IMG/VR virus record: IMGVR_UViG_2585427786_000006
DNA length: 43,020 nucleotides
Direction: 5' to 3' (one strand)
From: a virus
Lineage: Duplodnaviria; Heunggongvirae; Uroviricota; Caudoviricetes
Shown: one piece after another, positions 3,436 through 41,782 of the stretch
How the letters are laid out: every line of letters starts with the position of its first letter
How positions within the stretch are numbered: position 1 is the first letter of the stretch
Translations under genes and position numbers: made by a program
The notes under the pieces: model-generated
Seen by the model: the letters and a program-made list of their open reading frames with translations, nothing else
What the model was told of the DNA's origin: nothing
The model's database searches: none

Positions 3436-3610
3436 TATCGCGTCCTCAACAATGAATTTTGTGATGCAGTGCCTGGTGCCTCCAGGTGACGTTAACCAGT
3501 TAACAATTAACGCCGGATACAGAGAATCCACCCATAACACTGTTTTTGGTTTTAACTGTTCCGCGTGCGCTTAGCCGCATTCACCGCATCACAAAATTCA
3601 CTTTAAAAAC

Positions 3611-3662
3611 GGCGGCAGAGCAGTCACGGAGTAAAACTGATACCGCCAAACGTCACCAGAAA
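3611..3662 (-). ncRNA. dicF: DicF small RNA
   Basis: Reverse complement reads TTTCTGGTGACGTTTGGCGGTATCAGTTTTACTCCGTGACTGCTCTGCCGCC followed by GTTTTT, recognised as DicF with its intrinsic terminator. Confidence 0.8.
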
Positions 3663-8485: not shown

Positions 8486-8665
8486 ATGAAAAACGCATTG
8501 CAGTTTTTGTTTGTTGCGTTCTGGTTGTTCGCATCATGTATGCCCATCATCTTCACAGCAAGGTATATGGAAAAAGTTGATGTTTTGATATTAATATTTG
8601 GATATATAAATGCCCTTTTTTTAGGGGTGTTCATGGCGGTCATGTGCATTGAATACTGGCGGTAA
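8486..8665 (+). CDS. small two-TM membrane protein (59 aa)
   Basis: MKNALQFLFVAFWLFASCMPIIFTARYMEKVDVLILIFGYINALFLGVFMAVMCIEYWR; GGGGGAATA then ATG; AT-rich local composition. Confidence 0.45.
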   Translation: MKNALQFLFVAFWLFASCMPIIFTARYMEKVDVLILIFGYINALFLGVFMAVMCIEYWR

Positions 8666-8922
8666 ATACAGCGAACTCCATTGGTTTAGTTGGATATTTA
8701 CTGTGCTGGACAAAACGGTTTGCGGGGAAATCTTAGTTAAGTAGAATGACTGCGGGTGCTTGAGGCTATCTGCCTCGGGCACGAACACCAACGGCAGGTA
8801 GAGAAAAGCCCCAGTTAACATTACGCGTCCTGCAAGACGCTTAACATTAATCTGAGGCCAATTTCATGCTAGACACATGTAGGTTAGCCTCTTACGTGCC
8901 GAAAGGCAAGGAGAAGCAGGCT

Positions 8923-9078
8923 ATGAAGCAGCAAAAGGCGATGTTAATCGCCCTGATCGTCATCTGTTTAACCGTCATAGTGACGGCACTGGTAACGAGG
9001 AAAGACCTCTGCGAGGTACGAATCCGAACCGGCCAGACGGAGGTCGCTGTCTTCACAGCTTACGAACCTGAGGAGTAA
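8923..9078 (+). CDS. hokD: Hok-family type I toxin (51 aa)
   Basis: MKQQKAMLIALIVICLTVIVTALVTRKDLCEVRIRTGQTEVAVFTAYEPEE recognised as HokD/RelF; AAGGAG RBS; in-frame upstream extension from ATG 8866. Confidence 0.8.
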   Translation: MKQQKAMLIALIVICLTVIVTALVTRKDLCEVRIRTGQTEVAVFTAYEPEE

Positions 9079-9146
9079 GAGACCCGGCGAGGGAGAAATC
9101 CCTCGCCACCTCTGATGTGGCAGGCATCCTCAACGCACCCGCACTT

Positions 9147-9173
9147 AACCCGCTTCGGCGGGTTTTTGTTTTT
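9147..9173 (+). terminator. intrinsic terminator at the 3' end of the hok mRNA
   Basis: CCCGC-TTCG-GCGGG hairpin followed by T-run; preceded by a second hairpin 9086-9107 (candidate fold-back element). Confidence 0.6.
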
Positions 9174-9294
9174 ATTTTCAACGCGTTTGAAGTTCTGGAC
9201 GGTGCCGGAATAGAATCAAAAATACTTAAGTAGCGCGCAGGGATAAGAGGGATGGTCCCTTAAAGGGGAGAGCTAATTATCCGGAAGGATTCTG

Positions 9295-9546
9295 ATGATG
9301 AACATCGAAGAACTGCGTAAAATTTTTTGTGAAGATGGCCTCTATGCTGTGTGCGTTGAAAATGGAAATCTTGTTAGTCATTACCGCATTATGTGTTTGC
9401 GAAAGAATGGGGCTGCGTTAATTAATTTTGTGGATGGTCGAGTGACAGACGGATTTATCTTGCGCGAAGGTGAGTTTGTCACTTCATTACAGGCACTGAA
9501 AGAGATCGGAATAAAAGCAGGCTTTTCAGCTTTTGCAGAAGAATAA
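9295..9546 (+). CDS. small nin-region protein (83 aa), possibly Rem-like
   Basis: ORF track, ATGATG start after GGAAGGA; position between hok and the DUF968 gene. Confidence 0.45.
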   Translation: MMNIEELRKIFCEDGLYAVCVENGNLVSHYRIMCLRKNGAALINFVDGRVTDGFILREGEFVTSLQALKEIGIKAGFSAFAEE

Positions 9547-9612
9547 ACTCATCTACAATCTTGCGCGGGGCTGAACTCCCGCTGAGTAACACCGTGCCAC
9601 CGGAGAAAACCG

Positions 9613-9891
9613 ATGGCACGCAACGTAAAATATTACAATTCTGATAATTCGCCCGTTCTTGCCTGCACGCACGAGCGGTATTCTCACGCATTCAAGTCTG
9701 AATGGTTCCAGCACCCTCCATGCACTGAAGAGCAGGCTGAATGGATAATTCAGTGTTACCGCAGGCGCGGATACGAGGTTAAGAAAGCTCTTAGTCTCGA
9801 CTACCGTCACTGGATAATCTCAGTCAGATTGCCTTACTCCGAACGCCCACCGCGTCCGTCCCGTACATTCCAGCAACGCATCTGGAGGTAA
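9613..9891 (+). CDS. hypothetical Cys/His-containing protein (92 aa)
   Basis: GGAG RBS; stop 1 nt before the DUF968 gene start (translational coupling). Confidence 0.45.
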   Translation: MARNVKYYNSDNSPVLACTHERYSHAFKSEWFQHPPCTEEQAEWIIQCYRRRGYEVKKALSLDYRHWIISVRLPYSERPPRPSRTFQQRIWR

Positions 9892-9892
9892 C

Positions 9893-10942
9893 GTGCGGGT
9901 ATTACTTCGACCTGTTCTGGTACCGGAACTCGGGCTGGTGGTCGTTAAGCCGGGCCGTGAATCCATGCCGGTATTCCACAATACCCGGGTACTGGTGGAG
10001 CCGGAACCGAAAAGCATGCGTAATCTGCCGTCCGGGGTCGTTCCTGCCGTTCGCCAGCCGCTGGTGGAAGACAAAACATTGCTGCCGTTTTTCAGTAACG
10101 CACGGGTAATTCGTGCTGCTGGTGGTGCTGGTGCATTGTCTGACTGGCTGTTGCGCCATATTAAATCCTGCCAGTGGCCACACGGCGATTATCATCACAG
10201 CGAAACCGTTATTCACCGTTATGGTACCGGCGCAATGGTGTTGTGCTGGCACTGCGACAACCAGCTGCGTGACCAGACATCCGAATCACTCGAGCAACTT
10301 GCTCATCAAAACCTGTCAGCATGGATGATTGACGTCATCGGTCACGCAATAAGCGGTACGCAGGAGCGTGAATTATCTCTGGCTGAATTATCCTGGTGGG
10401 CGGTCCGCAATCAGGTGGCGGACGCGCTACCGGAAGTGGTATTACGTCGCTCGCTGGGATTACCAGCGGAAAAAAACTGCTCGGTGTACCGCGAAAGCGA
10501 CATCGTACCGGGAGAGCAGACCGCCACCAGCATATTGAAACAGCGCACAAAAAATCTTGCACCGTTGCCTCACGCCCACCAGCAACAAAACCCATCACAG
10601 GAAAAGACGGTGGTAAGCATCACCGTTGATCCAGAGTCTCCGGAATCTTTCATGAAGCTGCCTAAACGTCACCGTTGGGTTAAGGAGAAATACACACGCT
10701 GGGTTAAGACACAGCCGTGTGCTTGCTGCGGTATGCCAGCCGACGATCCGCATCATCTAATTGGTCACGGGCAGGGCGGAATGGGAACCAAAGCACATGA
10801 TCTCTTTGTGTTGCCTTTGTGCAGAAAGCATCACGACGAGTTGCATACGGATACCGTGGCATTTGAAGAGAAGTATGGCTCCCAACTGGAGCTGATTTTT
10901 CGATTTATCGATCGCGCGCTGGCAATTGGTGTGCTGGCCTAA
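9893..10942 (+). CDS. DUF968-family protein (YdfU-like) with C-terminal HNH-like Cys/His motif
   Basis: 349 aa; C-terminus PCACCG...[10 protein letters not shown]...CRKHHDELH; GGAGG before GTG start. Confidence 0.6.
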
Positions 10943-10959: not shown

Positions 10960-11337
10960 ATGCGTGATATTCAGATGGTTCTTGAGCGTTGGGGGGCATG
11001 GGCGGCTAATAATCATGAAGATGTGACCTGGTCGTCCATTGCCGCCGGTTTTAAGGGATTAATTCCTTCAAAAGTAAGATCTCGTCCGCAATGCTGTGAC
11101 GATGACGCGATGATCATTTGTGAATGTATGGCTCGCCTGAAAAAAAACAACAGCGATTTACATGATTTATTGGTGGACTATTATGTCGGCGGCATGACTT
11201 TTATGGCGCTTGCACGTAAGCATGGGCGATCTGATTGTTGGGTTGGCAGGATGCTCCAGAAAGCTGAGGGCGTAGTGGAGGGCATGCTGATGGTGTTGGA
11301 TCTCCGATTGGAGATGGATGCTGATTGTTCGAAATAA
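10960..11337 (+). CDS. late-gene antiterminator Q (125 aa)
   Basis: [26 protein letters not shown]... recognised as lambdoid Q (DLP12/21-type); followed by promoter-like element and short-RNA terminator. Confidence 0.75.
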
Positions 11338-11349
11338 TTAAAGGAAAAG

Positions 11350-11378
11350 TTGCTGTCTGATTTTCATTAGTCTAACAT
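11350..11378 (+). promoter_or_regulatory. candidate late promoter PR' (TTGCTG-N17-TAACAT) with presumed qut region
   Basis: Sigma70-like hexamers 12 bp downstream of Q stop and about 60 nt upstream of a strong terminator. Confidence 0.3.
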
Positions 11379-11435: not shown

Positions 11436-11464
11436 AGCCAGCCTCCCCAAAGGCTGGTTTTTTT
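11436..11464 (+). terminator. tR'-like intrinsic terminator
   Basis: AGCCAGCC-loop-GGCTGG hairpin followed by T7 run. Confidence 0.55.
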
Positions 11465-11492
11465 CTAATAAGTATCATTTCGGGTGGGGATT

Positions 11493-12017
11493 TTATTGTT
11501 TAACCCATAATAGTTCATTGACATTGAATCCCAACTTTTGAGCGGTACGCACATAGTCTGCTTTTACATTATCTGGAATAGTTTGGGTCCTTGCCAGAAT
11601 CCATAGGTATTCTCTGTTCGGACCACTGACAAGAGCATACTTATACTCATCATCCAGCTTGATTACATTATAGCCACCATAGAAGGGGCCAAAAAACGAA
11701 ACTTTCAACGCTGCAGTTTTAGTATCTCCAGTAAAGTATGCTTTACCTTCGCTCTCGCTCCATTTGTTTTTCGTTGGATCGTATCCACGGTTAAGTACGC
11801 GAATCCCTCCGTCGTTCCGTTTTTCATAAGTAGCGCTGACCTGTTCCAGACCACGTTCGAACCAGTTCTCGAGGCGAGCTATTTCATACCATTTTCCGAG
11901 GTAGCGGTTGGCGTCAAAATTTGTAATCGGCTGCACACCTTTAGGTGGTGTCGGGGCCTTACATGCTATAAGAGTGAAAGAGAGTGCAATGCCAGTCAAC
12001 ACAGGCCATAACTTCAT
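11493..12017 (-). CDS. blc: outer-membrane lipoprotein lipocalin (Blc family), 174 aa
   Basis: Lipobox LIAC; NFDANRYLGKWYEIARLENWFERGLEQVSATY...GKAYFTGDTKTAALKVSFFGPFYGGYNVIKLD recognised as Blc-like; antisense to late transcription. Confidence 0.8.
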   Translation of the reverse strand: MKLWPVLTGIALSFTLIACKAPTPPKGVQPITNFDANRYLGKWYEIARLENWFERGLEQVSATYEKRNDGGIRVLNRGYDPTKNKWSESEGKAYFTGDTKTAALKVSFFGPFYGGYNVIKLDDEYKYALVSGPNREYLWILARTQTIPDNVKADYVRTAQKLGFNVNELLWVKQ

Positions 12018-12209
12018 AATAAATCCTGTACTTTTGATAGTTGAGAGTAAGTATGAAAGATAGATGAGTACGACCGATCACTTAAAGAACTTTCCTACTA
12101 TATTAGGAATAGTCAATAACAGAAAAATTGTCAGTGATGAAGCCAGAAAGGCAATTTAGTCCGTGCACTACAAAGTTTATGTGTTAATGAATTAGTCAAG
12201 GGGGAGGAA

Positions 12210-13575: not shown

Positions 13576-14289
13576 ATGCCATACATATGTTCTATCATTT
13601 TGGTGTTGAACTCGTTTGGTGTCCGAATTGGTAAAGAAGATATTTTGTTTAAAAAAGGAAATGCTGTCCTCATTGAATACAATTTAAAAGATCTTTTTTC
13701 GTCAAATACAGATCATCTAATGATCGTAGATGTTGAGGAGAAAACAGTTAATGATTTCTTTAAAAACTACACACTCTCACCTTTTTCTGTAAGAAGGTTT
13801 TATCCGTCATACTTGATAGTAGAATGTGAAGATTTTTCATTGTTAAAGAACTTGGTTGCATGCTTGAATTGTGATAGCAAAACCGTGGATGTAGTTAGAA
13901 ATCAAATATCACTTGCATGTCTTGCTGTCTTATCTTCAGAGAAAATAGTGCAAAGTTTTTTGTTCGGAAGTCTTAATAGCTTAGGTTGTAAAGTTAAGGC
14001 TATTATTCACTCGGATATCTCAGCGTCATGGAGACTTTGTGATATATCTTCAAGATTATATATGAGCGAGAGTTTGTTAAAAAGAAAATTAAAAGACGAA
14101 GGATTATCGTTTAGTAAATTAATTCTTGAAGAACGAATGATGATGGCGCAAAGATTATTGATCTACAGTAACCATACTGTCGGCAAGGTGGCGGGAATAT
14201 GCGGGTATGACAATGCATCATATTTTGTAAGTGTTTTTAGAAGATATTTTGGTGTGCCTCCGCACCAATATTTATCAAGATTTTCTTAG
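13576..14289 (+). CDS. AraC-family transcriptional regulator, AppY/GadX-like (237 aa)
   Basis: C-terminal AraC HTH (LCDISSRLYMSESLLKRKLKDEGLSFSKL...ICGYDNASYFVSVFRRYFGVPPHQY); N-terminus resembles AppY; AT-rich gene and flanks. Confidence 0.75.
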   Translation: MPYICSIILVLNSFGVRIGKEDILFKKGNAVLIEYNLKDLFSSNTDHLMIVDVEEKTVNDFFKNYTLSPFSVRRFYPSYLIVECEDFSLLKNLVACLNCDSKTVDVVRNQISLACLAVLSSEKIVQSFLFGSLNSLGCKVKAIIHSDISASWRLCDISSRLYMSESLLKRKLKDEGLSFSKLILEERMMMAQRLLIYSNHTVGKVAGICGYDNASYFVSVFRRYFGVPPHQYLSRFS

Positions 14290-14356: not shown

Positions 14357-14389
14357 TACGCCAGAATAATTGCTGGCGTTTTTCTTTTT
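14357..14389 (+). terminator. intrinsic terminator after the AraC-family gene
   Basis: CGCCAG-AATAATT-GCTGGCG hairpin then TTTTTCTTTTT. Confidence 0.5.
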
Positions 14390-14479: not shown

Positions 14480-14695
14480 ATGAAATCCATGGATAAGTTA
14501 ACAACGGGCATCGCCTACAGCACCTCTGCAGGCAGTGCTGGCTACTGGTTTTTACAGTTGCTCGATAAAGTCACACCCTCACAGTGGGCGGCAATAGGTG
14601 TATTGGGTAGTCTGGTATTTGGCATGCTGACGTATCTGACAAACCTTTATTTCAAGATTAAAGAAGACAGGCGTAAGGCTGCGAGAGGAGAGTAA
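14480..14695 (+). CDS. pinholin, phage-21 S-type with dual start (71/68 aa)
   Basis: [71 protein letters not shown]; GGAGGTGAGG RBS; Met1 and Met4 starts. Confidence 0.8.
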
Positions 14696-16394: not shown

Positions 16395-16757
16395 ATTAAT
16401 ATTAAATCGGATTATTTTTAGCGCTGAATGTGAAATTTAAATAAAAAGGACTCTTCCATGAGTCAAAATCCTTGAAATCTTAAGGGTAAGATAAAAGGTC
16501 ATTAGACAGAATGACACGTTTTATTAATAAATAAAGCTATTGTTTCATTCGTGTGTTTTTCTTTACAAAAGTAATCCTTGCTATGGTTGGTTAATCATGC
16601 GTTAATGGTGTTCTGGTTTGTTACAAAATTATCTGAAGCAGTCATTGTTATAATTTTATTATTTGTACCTCTTGAGATTTCCTTGTTGGTTTTTCTCTCT
16701 GATATTTTTTTTCGGACCATTCTGCCCAAGGGCTAACTTCTTCAAAAGGTAATAATG

Positions 16758-16970
16758 ATGTCTAACAAAATGACTGGTTTAGTGAAATGGTTTAACCCTG
16801 AAAAAGGTTTTGGTTTCATCACGCCGAAAGATGGTAGCAAAGATGTGTTTGTCCATTTCTCAGCTATTCAGAGCAACGATTTCAAAACGTTAACTGAGAA
16901 TCAGGAAGTCGAATTTGGTATTGAGAACGGACCTAAAGGCCCCGCGGCTGTTCATGTTGTGGCACTTTGA
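16758..16970 (+). CDS. cspI: cold-shock protein CspI-like (70 aa)
   Basis: [39 protein letters not shown]... with RNP motifs; long AT-rich 5' leader upstream. Confidence 0.85.
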
Positions 16971-17169
16971 GGTAGAAAATATTACAAACCATATTCACTT
17001 TAGATGCCCGTGTTGCCATGGTTCTCAGTATAGAACATCATCTTTTGATGTTTCTGACAGGAATCCTTTCGGGGCAAAATGTATCTTTTGTAAATCAATG
17101 ATGATTACATTTGATAATATTTCACAATACTTAAATGTTAGCCGTCTGTCGTTAGATTTAAGAAAGTGA
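16954..17169 (+). CDS. YnfN-like Cys-rich small protein
   Basis: ...[54 protein letters not shown]; ATG overlapping the cspI 3' end; start uncertain. Confidence 0.4.
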
Positions 17170-41207: not shown

Positions 41208-41782
41208 TGGTATTCAGAATGAGTGAACAACCACGGACCATAACAATTTATAATCTGCTGGCCGGAACTAATGAATTTATTGGTGAAGGTGATGCATATA
41301 TTCCGCCTCATACAGGTCTGCCAGCAAACAGTACCGATATTGCACCGCCAGATATTCCGGCAGGCTTCGTGGCTGTTTTCAACAGTGATGAGGCATCGTG
41401 GCATCTCGTTGAAGATCATCGGGGTAAAACGGTTTATGACGTGGCTTCCGGCGACGCGTTATTTATTTCTGAACTCGGTCCGTTACCGGAAAATGTTACC
41501 TGGTTATCGCCGGAAGGGGAGTTTCAGAAGTGGAACGGCACAGCCTGGGTGAAGGATACGGAAGCAGAAAAACTGTTCCGGATCCGGGAGGCGGAAGAAA
41601 CAAAAAACAACCTGATGCAGGTAGCCAGTGAGCATATTGCGCCGCTTCAGGATGCTGCAGATCTGGAAATTGCAACGGAGGAAGAAATCTCGTTGCTGGA
41701 AGCATGGAAAAAGTATCGGGTATTGCTGAACCGTGTTGATACGTCAACTTCACAGGATATTGAATGGCCAGCACTGCCGTAG
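41207..41782 (+). CDS. tail fiber assembly protein (Tfa)
   Basis: M(V/A)[42 protein letters not shown]...; TAATG overlap with stf stop. Confidence 0.85.

Follow-up and report, generated by a model that had tools for sequence, protein, structure and literature searches.

A second Blc-type lipocalin gene, probably expressed in the lysogen, between Q and the holin gene of a Qin-like lambdoid prophage of Escherichia coli

The DNA analyzed, referred to throughout as the window, is the whole 43,020-nucleotide stretch of the Caudoviricetes record IMGVR_UViG_2585427786_000006 (IMG/VR), and it is a Qin-like lambdoid prophage of Escherichia coli. Its subject here is a lipocalin gene, blc2 (Table 1; called the prophage blc below), which lies between the late antiterminator gene Q with its terminator and the holin gene, a position in which related phages carry other cargo. 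The gene is a moron, cargo dispensable for phage growth, and encodes a second, horizontally acquired outer-membrane lipocalin Blc, which on balance is probably expressed in the lysogen and concerned with lipid housekeeping. Gene order in the window is int-xis-exo ... dicB ... hokD-rem-ydfU-Q-blc-'YbgA'-HTH-essD-lysozyme-Rz-cspI-terminase-head-tail, in which 'YbgA' is rudS and HTH is a gene for an AraC-like regulator. The region is 99.95% identical to a prophage of E. coli S1-INA-02-B (L001) that is inserted beside rspB/ynfA, the Qin locus.

The open reading frame runs from ATG to TAA with no internal stops and encodes 174 amino acids. Its product was matched by Pfam Lipocalin_2 (PF08212; E 7.5e-43, 146.4 bits against a cutoff of 24) and by the NCBIfam model PRK10477/NF007786, 'outer membrane lipoprotein Blc', with a score of 312.6 bits that exceeds the curated cutoff (267), residues 1-174 being covered by a model of 176 positions. 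Identity to Blc of E. coli K-12 is 59% in a gap-free alignment, and residues 20-174 aligned without gaps to the Blc structure 3mbt in PDB (E 8e-67), with 1qwd and 2aco also matched (E ~1e-66). The N-terminus, MKLWPVLTGIALSFTLIAC, has an N-terminal Lys and a hydrophobic stretch followed by the lipobox L16-I17-A18-C19 (11972-11961). Cys19 aligns with Cys19 of K-12 Blc and was invariant across 24 homologues, and the +2 residue after this predicted lipidation site is Lys20. Sorting to the outer membrane was predicted from the +2 rule only, the residue there being Lys and not Asp. An AlphaFold model built on the 24-sequence alignment was of low confidence (mean predicted local distance difference test score 58; seven strands and a C-terminal helix), and its top Foldseek matches, which were Blc, plant TIL and ApoD, reached template-modelling scores of just 0.43-0.46. 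The predicted lipocalin fold, an eight-stranded antiparallel barrel with a C-terminal helix, is accordingly argued from homology to solved structures, with little drawn from the model. A preliminary description of this DNA, made from the sequence alone, had placed a lipocalin with lipobox LIAC at these coordinates and on this strand; the profile matches and direct reading of the sequence agree with it in each respect, and the gap-free alignments to 3mbt, 1qwd and 2aco speak against the absence of a lipocalin fold, which that description had named as the finding that would count against it.

The ligand pocket was compared with that of K-12 Blc using the residues that lie within 4 A of the ligand in the wtBlc-split heme-complex structure (PMC8177097), the source of the heme and fatty-acid contact residues of Blc. 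Eighteen of the 19 contact residues are identical in the two proteins, the remaining one being K77R. The comparison suggests that a hydrophobic pocket like that of K-12 Blc is conserved at residue level, and binding itself is predicted.

Conservation of the gene was followed across viral loci, for which all counts refer to the best 80 of 130 IMG/VR stretches encoding a relative; these 80 are 97-100% identical. Copies of blc are intact in all 80, whereas rudS is intact in 74 of 77 and the adjacent AraC-like gene in about 60 of 73, with disruptions in about 10 of the 73; blc is the best-preserved gene of the three-gene cassette. Between phage alleles, synonymous divergence (dS) of blc reached 0.19-0.20 while nonsynonymous divergence (dN) was 0.015-0.017, giving dN/dS of 0.07-0.20; the corresponding ratios were 0.04-0.11 for Q, similar to blc, and 0.11-0.24 for rudS. 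These ratios show that blc is under purifying selection. A protein-identical prophage Blc (WP_000780584.1) is also kept by E. coli BL21(RP) (NZ_CP084683.1, 235119-235982; L170), in a decayed prophage where rudS ends after 147 nt and the host genes fadH and higBA follow directly in place of the lysis and virion genes, which are absent from the stretch covered. An alternative is that blc is a passive hitch-hiker beside Q and the late promoter and has no function in either phage or lysogen. Such a reading would account for the constant association of blc with the same Q type, for the lack of any known phenotype and for the failure of a scan to find a clear promoter. The selection, the intactness of the gene (including full length in 1042 of 1135 E. 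coli matches) and its retention in BL21 argue against a hitch-hiker, which is improbable, and fit a function in the lysogen over one in phage growth.

The preliminary description had proposed that the gene is a diverged paralogue of the chromosomal blc, and the genome survey upholds this. Of 5426 complete E. coli genomes, 5425 have the chromosomal blc, and 1135 have the prophage blc as an additional gene, at full length in about 92% of these; the two proteins differ by the margin given above. That the gene might be an artefact, either a piece of host chromosome acquired recently or an assembly error, had been raised in the same description and has almost nothing in its favour. Protein identity to the host gene is just 59%, no ampC or gdx sequence flanks the prophage copy, and the same arrangement recurs in more than 1100 complete genomes, in 80 IMG/VR contigs and in 12 records of phage genomes, among them induced lambdas of the infant gut. 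Identity, flanks and recurrence together exclude an artefact. Eleven of the 12 records are lambda-like and match the infant-gut set of Mathieu 2020.

The arrangement of Q, terminator and blc bears on how the gene could be transcribed. Q of the window is 86% identical to QuuD of K-12 prophage DLP12 and is labelled 'antiterminator Q family protein' in the near-identical prophage of S1-INA-02-B; its longest open reading frame begins at TTG 10945. About 100 nt beyond the Q stop codon is a tR'-like terminator, the hairpin of which (11436-11459) folds at -14.9 kcal/mol (z -3.9) and was equalled in stability by none of 200 shuffled sequences. The terminator is conserved in phages 1H12 and IdasGreatGrand, and its read-through is presumably Q-dependent. 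The U-run is followed 27 nt further on by the stop codon of blc, a gene that is antisense to late transcription. A position after Q and the terminator and against the late operon, as stated in the preliminary description, is thus confirmed by the Q match and the hairpin fold. Between Q and the terminator a late-promoter candidate, TTGCTG-17-TAACAT (11350-11378), was weak and is not claimed, and DLP12 shares merely one ATATAACAG block with the window in this interval. Folded as minus-strand RNA, the hairpin lacks a U tail and was no better than shuffled sequences (z -0.5).

From this arrangement the following course of events is proposed. Lying antisense and beyond the post-Q terminator, blc would not be made from the Q-antiterminated late transcript. 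Because blc opposes the late operon beyond the terminator, it is expected to have its own promoter in the 192-bp spacer that it shares with rudS and to be expressed in the lysogen, in the manner of nmpC, bor and lom. During lytic growth, late transcription reading through the terminator would cross blc in the antisense direction and tend to silence it. After export, the pre-protein would receive its lipid at Cys19 and be passed by the Lol system to the outer membrane, the expected destination given Lys rather than Asp at +2. There the calyx would take up hydrophobic ligands like those of K-12 Blc, such as lysophospholipids, fatty acids and possibly heme, and the added capacity for envelope lipid housekeeping under stress would benefit the lysogen. 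A lysogen-expressed envelope factor, the role suggested in the preliminary description, is consistent with the orientation of the gene, the purifying selection, the intact copies in all 80 viral loci and the retention in BL21.

Several points weigh against this reading. A consensus scan of the spacer (12018-12209) detected no sigma-70 promoter, and a hairpin fold check found no intrinsic U-tailed terminator on the blc strand. The MerR-like regulator gene of the presumed ancestral locus, described below, is absent from the phage cassette. A literature search, including by protein accession, returned no data on transcription, protein or phenotype of the prophage blc; the phiv142-3 paper names lipocalin just incidentally and has no bearing on the gene. 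The physiological role of Blc itself is unsettled in the literature. The loops at the pocket entrance differ from those of K-12 Blc by F49L, D50E, H51N and G84N, plus R52W in the window allele only, and in K-12 Blc the change G84E was reported to reduce binding of lysophosphatidylethanolamine (PMC7026729). Given these entrance-loop changes, the ligand preference of the prophage protein may differ from that of K-12 Blc.

Table 1. Positions and strands of the features in and around the Q-to-holin interval of the window, with the basis of each assignment
Feature	Coordinates	Strand	Basis
Late antiterminator Q, 125 aa (amino acids) from ATG	10960-11337	+	Pfam Phage_antitermQ, E 8e-51
tR'-like intrinsic terminator; 9-bp GC-rich stem, 6-nt loop, U7 tail	11436-11466	+	Terminator scan, RNA fold
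blc2, Blc-family outer-membrane lipocalin lipoprotein, 174 aa	11493-12017	-	Profiles, identity to K-12 Blc, PDB matches
Predicted signal peptide, codons 1-19, with lipobox LIAC	11961-12017	-	Direct sequence reading
Divergent intergenic region blc/rudS, 192 bp	12018-12209	.	Spacer length and allele comparison
Motif AATATAGTAGGAA within near-palindrome TTCCTAATATAGTAGGAA, ~75-85 nt upstream of blc ATG	12092-12104	-	Shared with chromosomal loci
rudS, annotated 'YbgA family', TudS desulfidase fused to DUF1722, 319 aa	12210-13169	+	Pfam 2-thiour_desulf 5.8e-40, DUF1722 9.4e-40
AraC-family regulator, YdeO/GadX-like	13576-14289	+	Pfam HTH_18 1.8e-17
Second terminator-like hairpin, U-rich tail, at cargo end before lysis genes	14358-14379	+	-11.3 kcal/mol, z -2.65
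Phage-21-type holin, essD-like; first lysis gene, end of cargo slot	14480-14695	+	Pfam Phage_holin_2_1 6.1e-34; essD in S1-INA-02-B prophage

In phages, blc(-), rudS(+) and the AraC-like regulator gene(+) form a fixed three-gene cassette. The order Q(+) blc(-) rudS(+) araC(+) holin(+) was found in 69 of the 80 viral loci, most of the others being cut by contig ends, and the cassette is present in ~21% of complete E. coli genomes, BL21 included. G+C content of the cargo is 30-46% against 50-56% in the upstream ydfU. The rudS product has 92% amino acid identity to gp66 (RudS_vir) of phage 1H12. The AraC-like gene (31-33% G+C) fell below every NCBIfam cutoff, its best match being YdeO at 113.8 bits against a cutoff of 348; phages 1H12 and IdasGreatGrand have counterparts in the same place that are 77-87% identical, a faster divergence than in the other cassette genes. 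The AraC-like product might act on host acid-stress genes or on the blc/rudS promoters. In other strains, insertions of IS903B, IS5, IS3 or IS2 were seen within the cassette, and the second hairpin, which stands between the AraC-like gene and the holin gene, implies that a further read-through would be needed by late transcription.

In 76 of 77 viral loci, blc and rudS are separated by exactly 192 bp. Comparison of three phage alleles showed the blc-proximal half of this spacer to be the more conserved, with 6 substitutions in the ~115 nt beside blc and 16 in the ~70 nt beside rudS. By eye, the candidates for a promoter were a NATACT -10-like hexamer without a -35 and a TATAGT inside a conserved motif without a properly spaced -35, and no promoter is claimed from either. 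The motif listed in Table 1 was seen once in the window against 0.05 expected and is near-invariant in the three alleles, with a single G to T change in IdasGreatGrand. The form AATATAnTAnGAA occurs at the equivalent site upstream of blc in 8 chromosomal loci, between blc and a divergent MerR-like gene; genera that share the motif in this interval are Enterobacter, Leclercia, Buttiauxella, Raoultella and Cedecea. The motif is a candidate core-promoter or regulator site inherited from the ancestral locus, and may be an overlapping divergent -10 region or a regulator site that has outlived its regulator gene.

The origin of the cassette was approached through its chromosomal relatives. Outside E. 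coli, the closest homologues of the prophage Blc are 72-80% identical and belong to other Enterobacterales; those at 78-80% are ordinary chromosomal genes of Enterobacter-like bacteria with rudS alongside. Searches of the flanks around 80 fetched Blc genome loci by tblastn separated two clades. Members of the first are 56-61% identical to the prophage Blc and occur, as in K-12, in the context frd-(ampC)-blc-gdx; those of the second are 73-80% identical and occur with MerR-(transthyretin-like)-rudS. One blc of each clade is present in Buttiauxella izardii. At clade-discriminating positions the prophage Blc agreed with the MerR/RudS-linked clade at 9 of 10 and with the frd-ampC clade at 0 of 10. 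The prophage gene is accordingly not orthologous to the chromosomal blc: the frd, ampC and gdx neighbours are absent from its locus, and its similarity to the other clade is higher. In the 13 closest chromosomal loci (Blc at least 73% identical), rudS adjoins blc in 11, and in 10 of these a MerR/MlrA-like regulator gene is divergent from blc; the locus L014 has rudS beside blc without the regulator gene. Order at the MerR-linked loci is regulator, usually a transthyretin-like gene, then a 319-amino acid TudS-DUF1722 gene, and the RudS proteins encoded there share 70-72% identity with the phage RudS. Because blc and rudS both have their closest relatives in the same chromosomal loci and share the upstream motif, the two genes were probably captured jointly from a MerR-linked locus of another enterobacterial genus, with loss of the regulator and transthyretin-like genes. 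Codon 52 of blc (11862-11864, minus strand) encodes Trp in the window allele and Arg in phage 1H12 and in all MerR/RudS-linked chromosomal Blc; Arg52 has been described at the entrance of the K-12 Blc pocket (PMC7026729).

The companionship of blc and rudS allows a second reading, which would extend rather than exclude a lipid-housekeeping lipocalin. Proteins of the TudS-DUF1722 type are RudS, which removes the 4-thiouridine (s4U) modification from tRNA; RudS genes typically belong to operons that respond to light and are controlled by MerR/LitR regulators, and RudS_vir of phage 1H12 reduced tRNA s4U when overexpressed (PMC11417400). In this reading, blc and rudS form a mobile near-ultraviolet and photo-oxidative stress cassette in which RudS would clear tRNA of photosensitive 4-thiouridine and Blc would deal with membrane lipids that have been photo-oxidised or lysed, the pair having been copied from a light- or stress-regulated MerR operon and given to an E. 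coli otherwise without RudS. It is a tentative proposal and rather unlikely. In its favour are the linkage of blc to rudS and a MerR-like regulator in the chromosomal loci described above, the second-best NCBIfam match of that regulator, which is CarH, and the fixed length of the spacer in the phages. In a Cedecea lapagei contig (L003, 1-5883), the regulator divergent from blc heads a lipid-modifying cluster (SnoaL-like, SDR, amine oxidase, DUF1365, cyclopropane-fatty-acid-synthase-like and DUF2878 genes) where other loci have rudS. Three Bacteroidota loci have a photolyase homologue, with 35-37% identity to E. coli Phr, directly upstream of a Blc homologue on the same strand. ApoD and plant TIL, which are eukaryotic relatives of Blc, protect against lipid peroxidation.

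These links amount to guilt by association, and they are limited to a clade. In a relaxed tblastn search around the 80 Blc loci, which also covered the fatty-acid-modifying cluster of Cedecea and photolyase, the MerR/RudS link appeared in the closest enterobacterial clade only, with the three photolyase loci in addition; relatives in Kosakonia, Pantoea and Symbiopectobacterium lack it, and a universal linkage between Blc and light stress, confined as the evidence is to one enterobacterial clade and three distant cases, is not supported. The photolyase-linked loci (L052, L075 and L078, on Crocinitomicaceae, Chryseobacterium and Bacteroidales contigs, at ~8580-10000) constitute a separate association of Blc with light damage. 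Persistence of blc where rudS has decayed (BL21 and 3 of 77 viral loci) indicates that blc is independent of rudS. Further points against the proposal are the darkness of the gut, the absence of the light-sensing regulator from the phages and a literature search, on lipocalin together with photolyase, MerR and cyclopropane, that found no paper tying Blc to light. The stronger form of the proposal, that blc-rudS is a functional two-gene photo-protection module moved without its sensor from an Enterobacter-like MerR/LitR-type locus into a fifth of E. coli, is doubtful.

Another alternative takes the lipocalin for a superinfection-exclusion or receptor-masking lipoprotein, like Cor of phi80 and N15 or Llp of T5. 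Outer-membrane lipoproteins encoded by prophages often act in exclusion. Among lambda morons, membrane proteins are the predominant kind (Mathieu 2020, PMC6969025), and relative to K-12 Blc the most altered regions are the loops around the barrel opening, both as exclusion would lead one to expect. The loop changes are set against a ligand pocket kept at 18 of 19 positions, close homologues in non-phage chromosomal contexts, and dN/dS values that give no sign of the diversifying selection of an arms race. No PADLOC defence model matched at E 0.01 or better, and the PHROG family of the protein (2809) has no assigned function. An exclusion factor is for these reasons very improbable, and a lysogen-expressed lipocalin concerned with envelope lipids remains the preferred reading.

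Both the gene and its status as a moron were already known. RefSeq labels it 'lipocalin family protein' or 'blc', PHROGs holds the family cited above, and blc is listed among the commonest morons, in >50% of 19 infant-gut lambdas (Mathieu 2020, PMC6969025); it is common and largely ordinary outer-membrane cargo in a known lambdoid hot spot. Any novelty is modest and may lie in the division of enterobacterial Blc into two clades, the shared origin of blc and rudS at a MerR-linked locus and the fixed three-gene cassette on the one hand, and on the other in the presence of a second Blc in a fifth of E. coli genomes, including BL21, many of which also have RudS. About 1 in 5 complete E. coli genomes, BL21 among them, make or could make two different Blc lipocalins, and studies of blc alleles and gut lysophospholipids (e.g. 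PMC7026729) consider the chromosomal copy only. The statement in the RudS paper that E. coli lacks RudS (PMC11417400) holds for K-12 and not for the species, because rudS adjoins the prophage blc in the cassette. The pairing of one Blc clade with rudS and a MerR-like regulator offers a testable lead to the physiological role of Blc. If the photo-protection module were true, that role would be defined: Blc would deal with lyso-lipids or photo-oxidised lipids in the outer membrane as RudS rids tRNA of its photosensitiser, and outside the gut the prophage would help to determine tolerance of light or oxidative stress.

Elsewhere in the prophage, the S1-INA-02-B copy carries an IS2 insertion (26003-27328 of L001) that is absent from the window (~17300), the two being otherwise near-identical. 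Rfam matches above the gathering score were the DicF small RNA (3610-3661, minus strand), the sok antitoxin RNA beside hokD (8754-8928, plus strand), a cspA-type thermoregulator leader before cspI (16600-17016, plus strand) and IS009 (41550-41748, plus strand).

Among known systems, the slot itself has several well-described occupants. The preliminary description had noted that nmpC or stx holds this position in other lambdoid prophages, which is correct for nmpC in K-12 DLP12 and for stx in 933W, with the distinction that stx is in the sense orientation, unlike blc. In DLP12, nmpC follows the QuuD gene described above and precedes the essD holin, and it is antisense like blc. In 933W, the Q-to-S interval holds tRNAs and stxA2B2; stx, being in the sense orientation, is therefore driven by Q-dependent late transcription, as the antisense blc cannot be. 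In K-12 Qin, the interval from Q to essQ contains cspF, cspB and small genes instead of blc. DLP12 and Qin both have flanking genes homologous to those around the slot in the window. The bor gene of lambda lies antisense beside the lysis genes, like blc. Expression of bor and lom from the lysogen is documented. NmpC is a porin and Bor and Lom have unrelated folds, so that none is a lipocalin, unlike Blc.

As a protein, the prophage Blc is comparable to K-12 Blc (b4149; PDB 1QWD, 2ACO and 3MBT), with which it shares family, length class and the position of the lipobox at Cys19. The K-12 gene differs in its frd-ampC-blc-gdx locus, in belonging to the other clade, in being near-universal in E. 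coli and in encoding Ser at +2, where the prophage protein has Lys. Expression of K-12 blc is reported to be RpoS-dependent. The MerR/RudS-linked Blc (L004 and L006-L015; Enterobacter, Leclercia, Buttiauxella, Raoultella and Huaxiibacter) resemble the phage gene in length (174 amino acids), in the rudS neighbour and in the upstream AATATAnTAnGAA motif; they are chromosomal and their blc is divergent from the regulator, whereas in the phage rudS faces blc directly across 192 bp. The closest counterpart considered here is gp65 of phage 1H12, a 96% identical protein in the same Q-blc-rudS-araC-holin arrangement as in the window. Upstream of Q the two backbones differ, being a nin region with rusA-ylcG in 1H12 and ydfU in the window, so that the same Q type carries the cassette on different backbones, as rusA-ylcG-Q in the one and ydfU-Q in the other.

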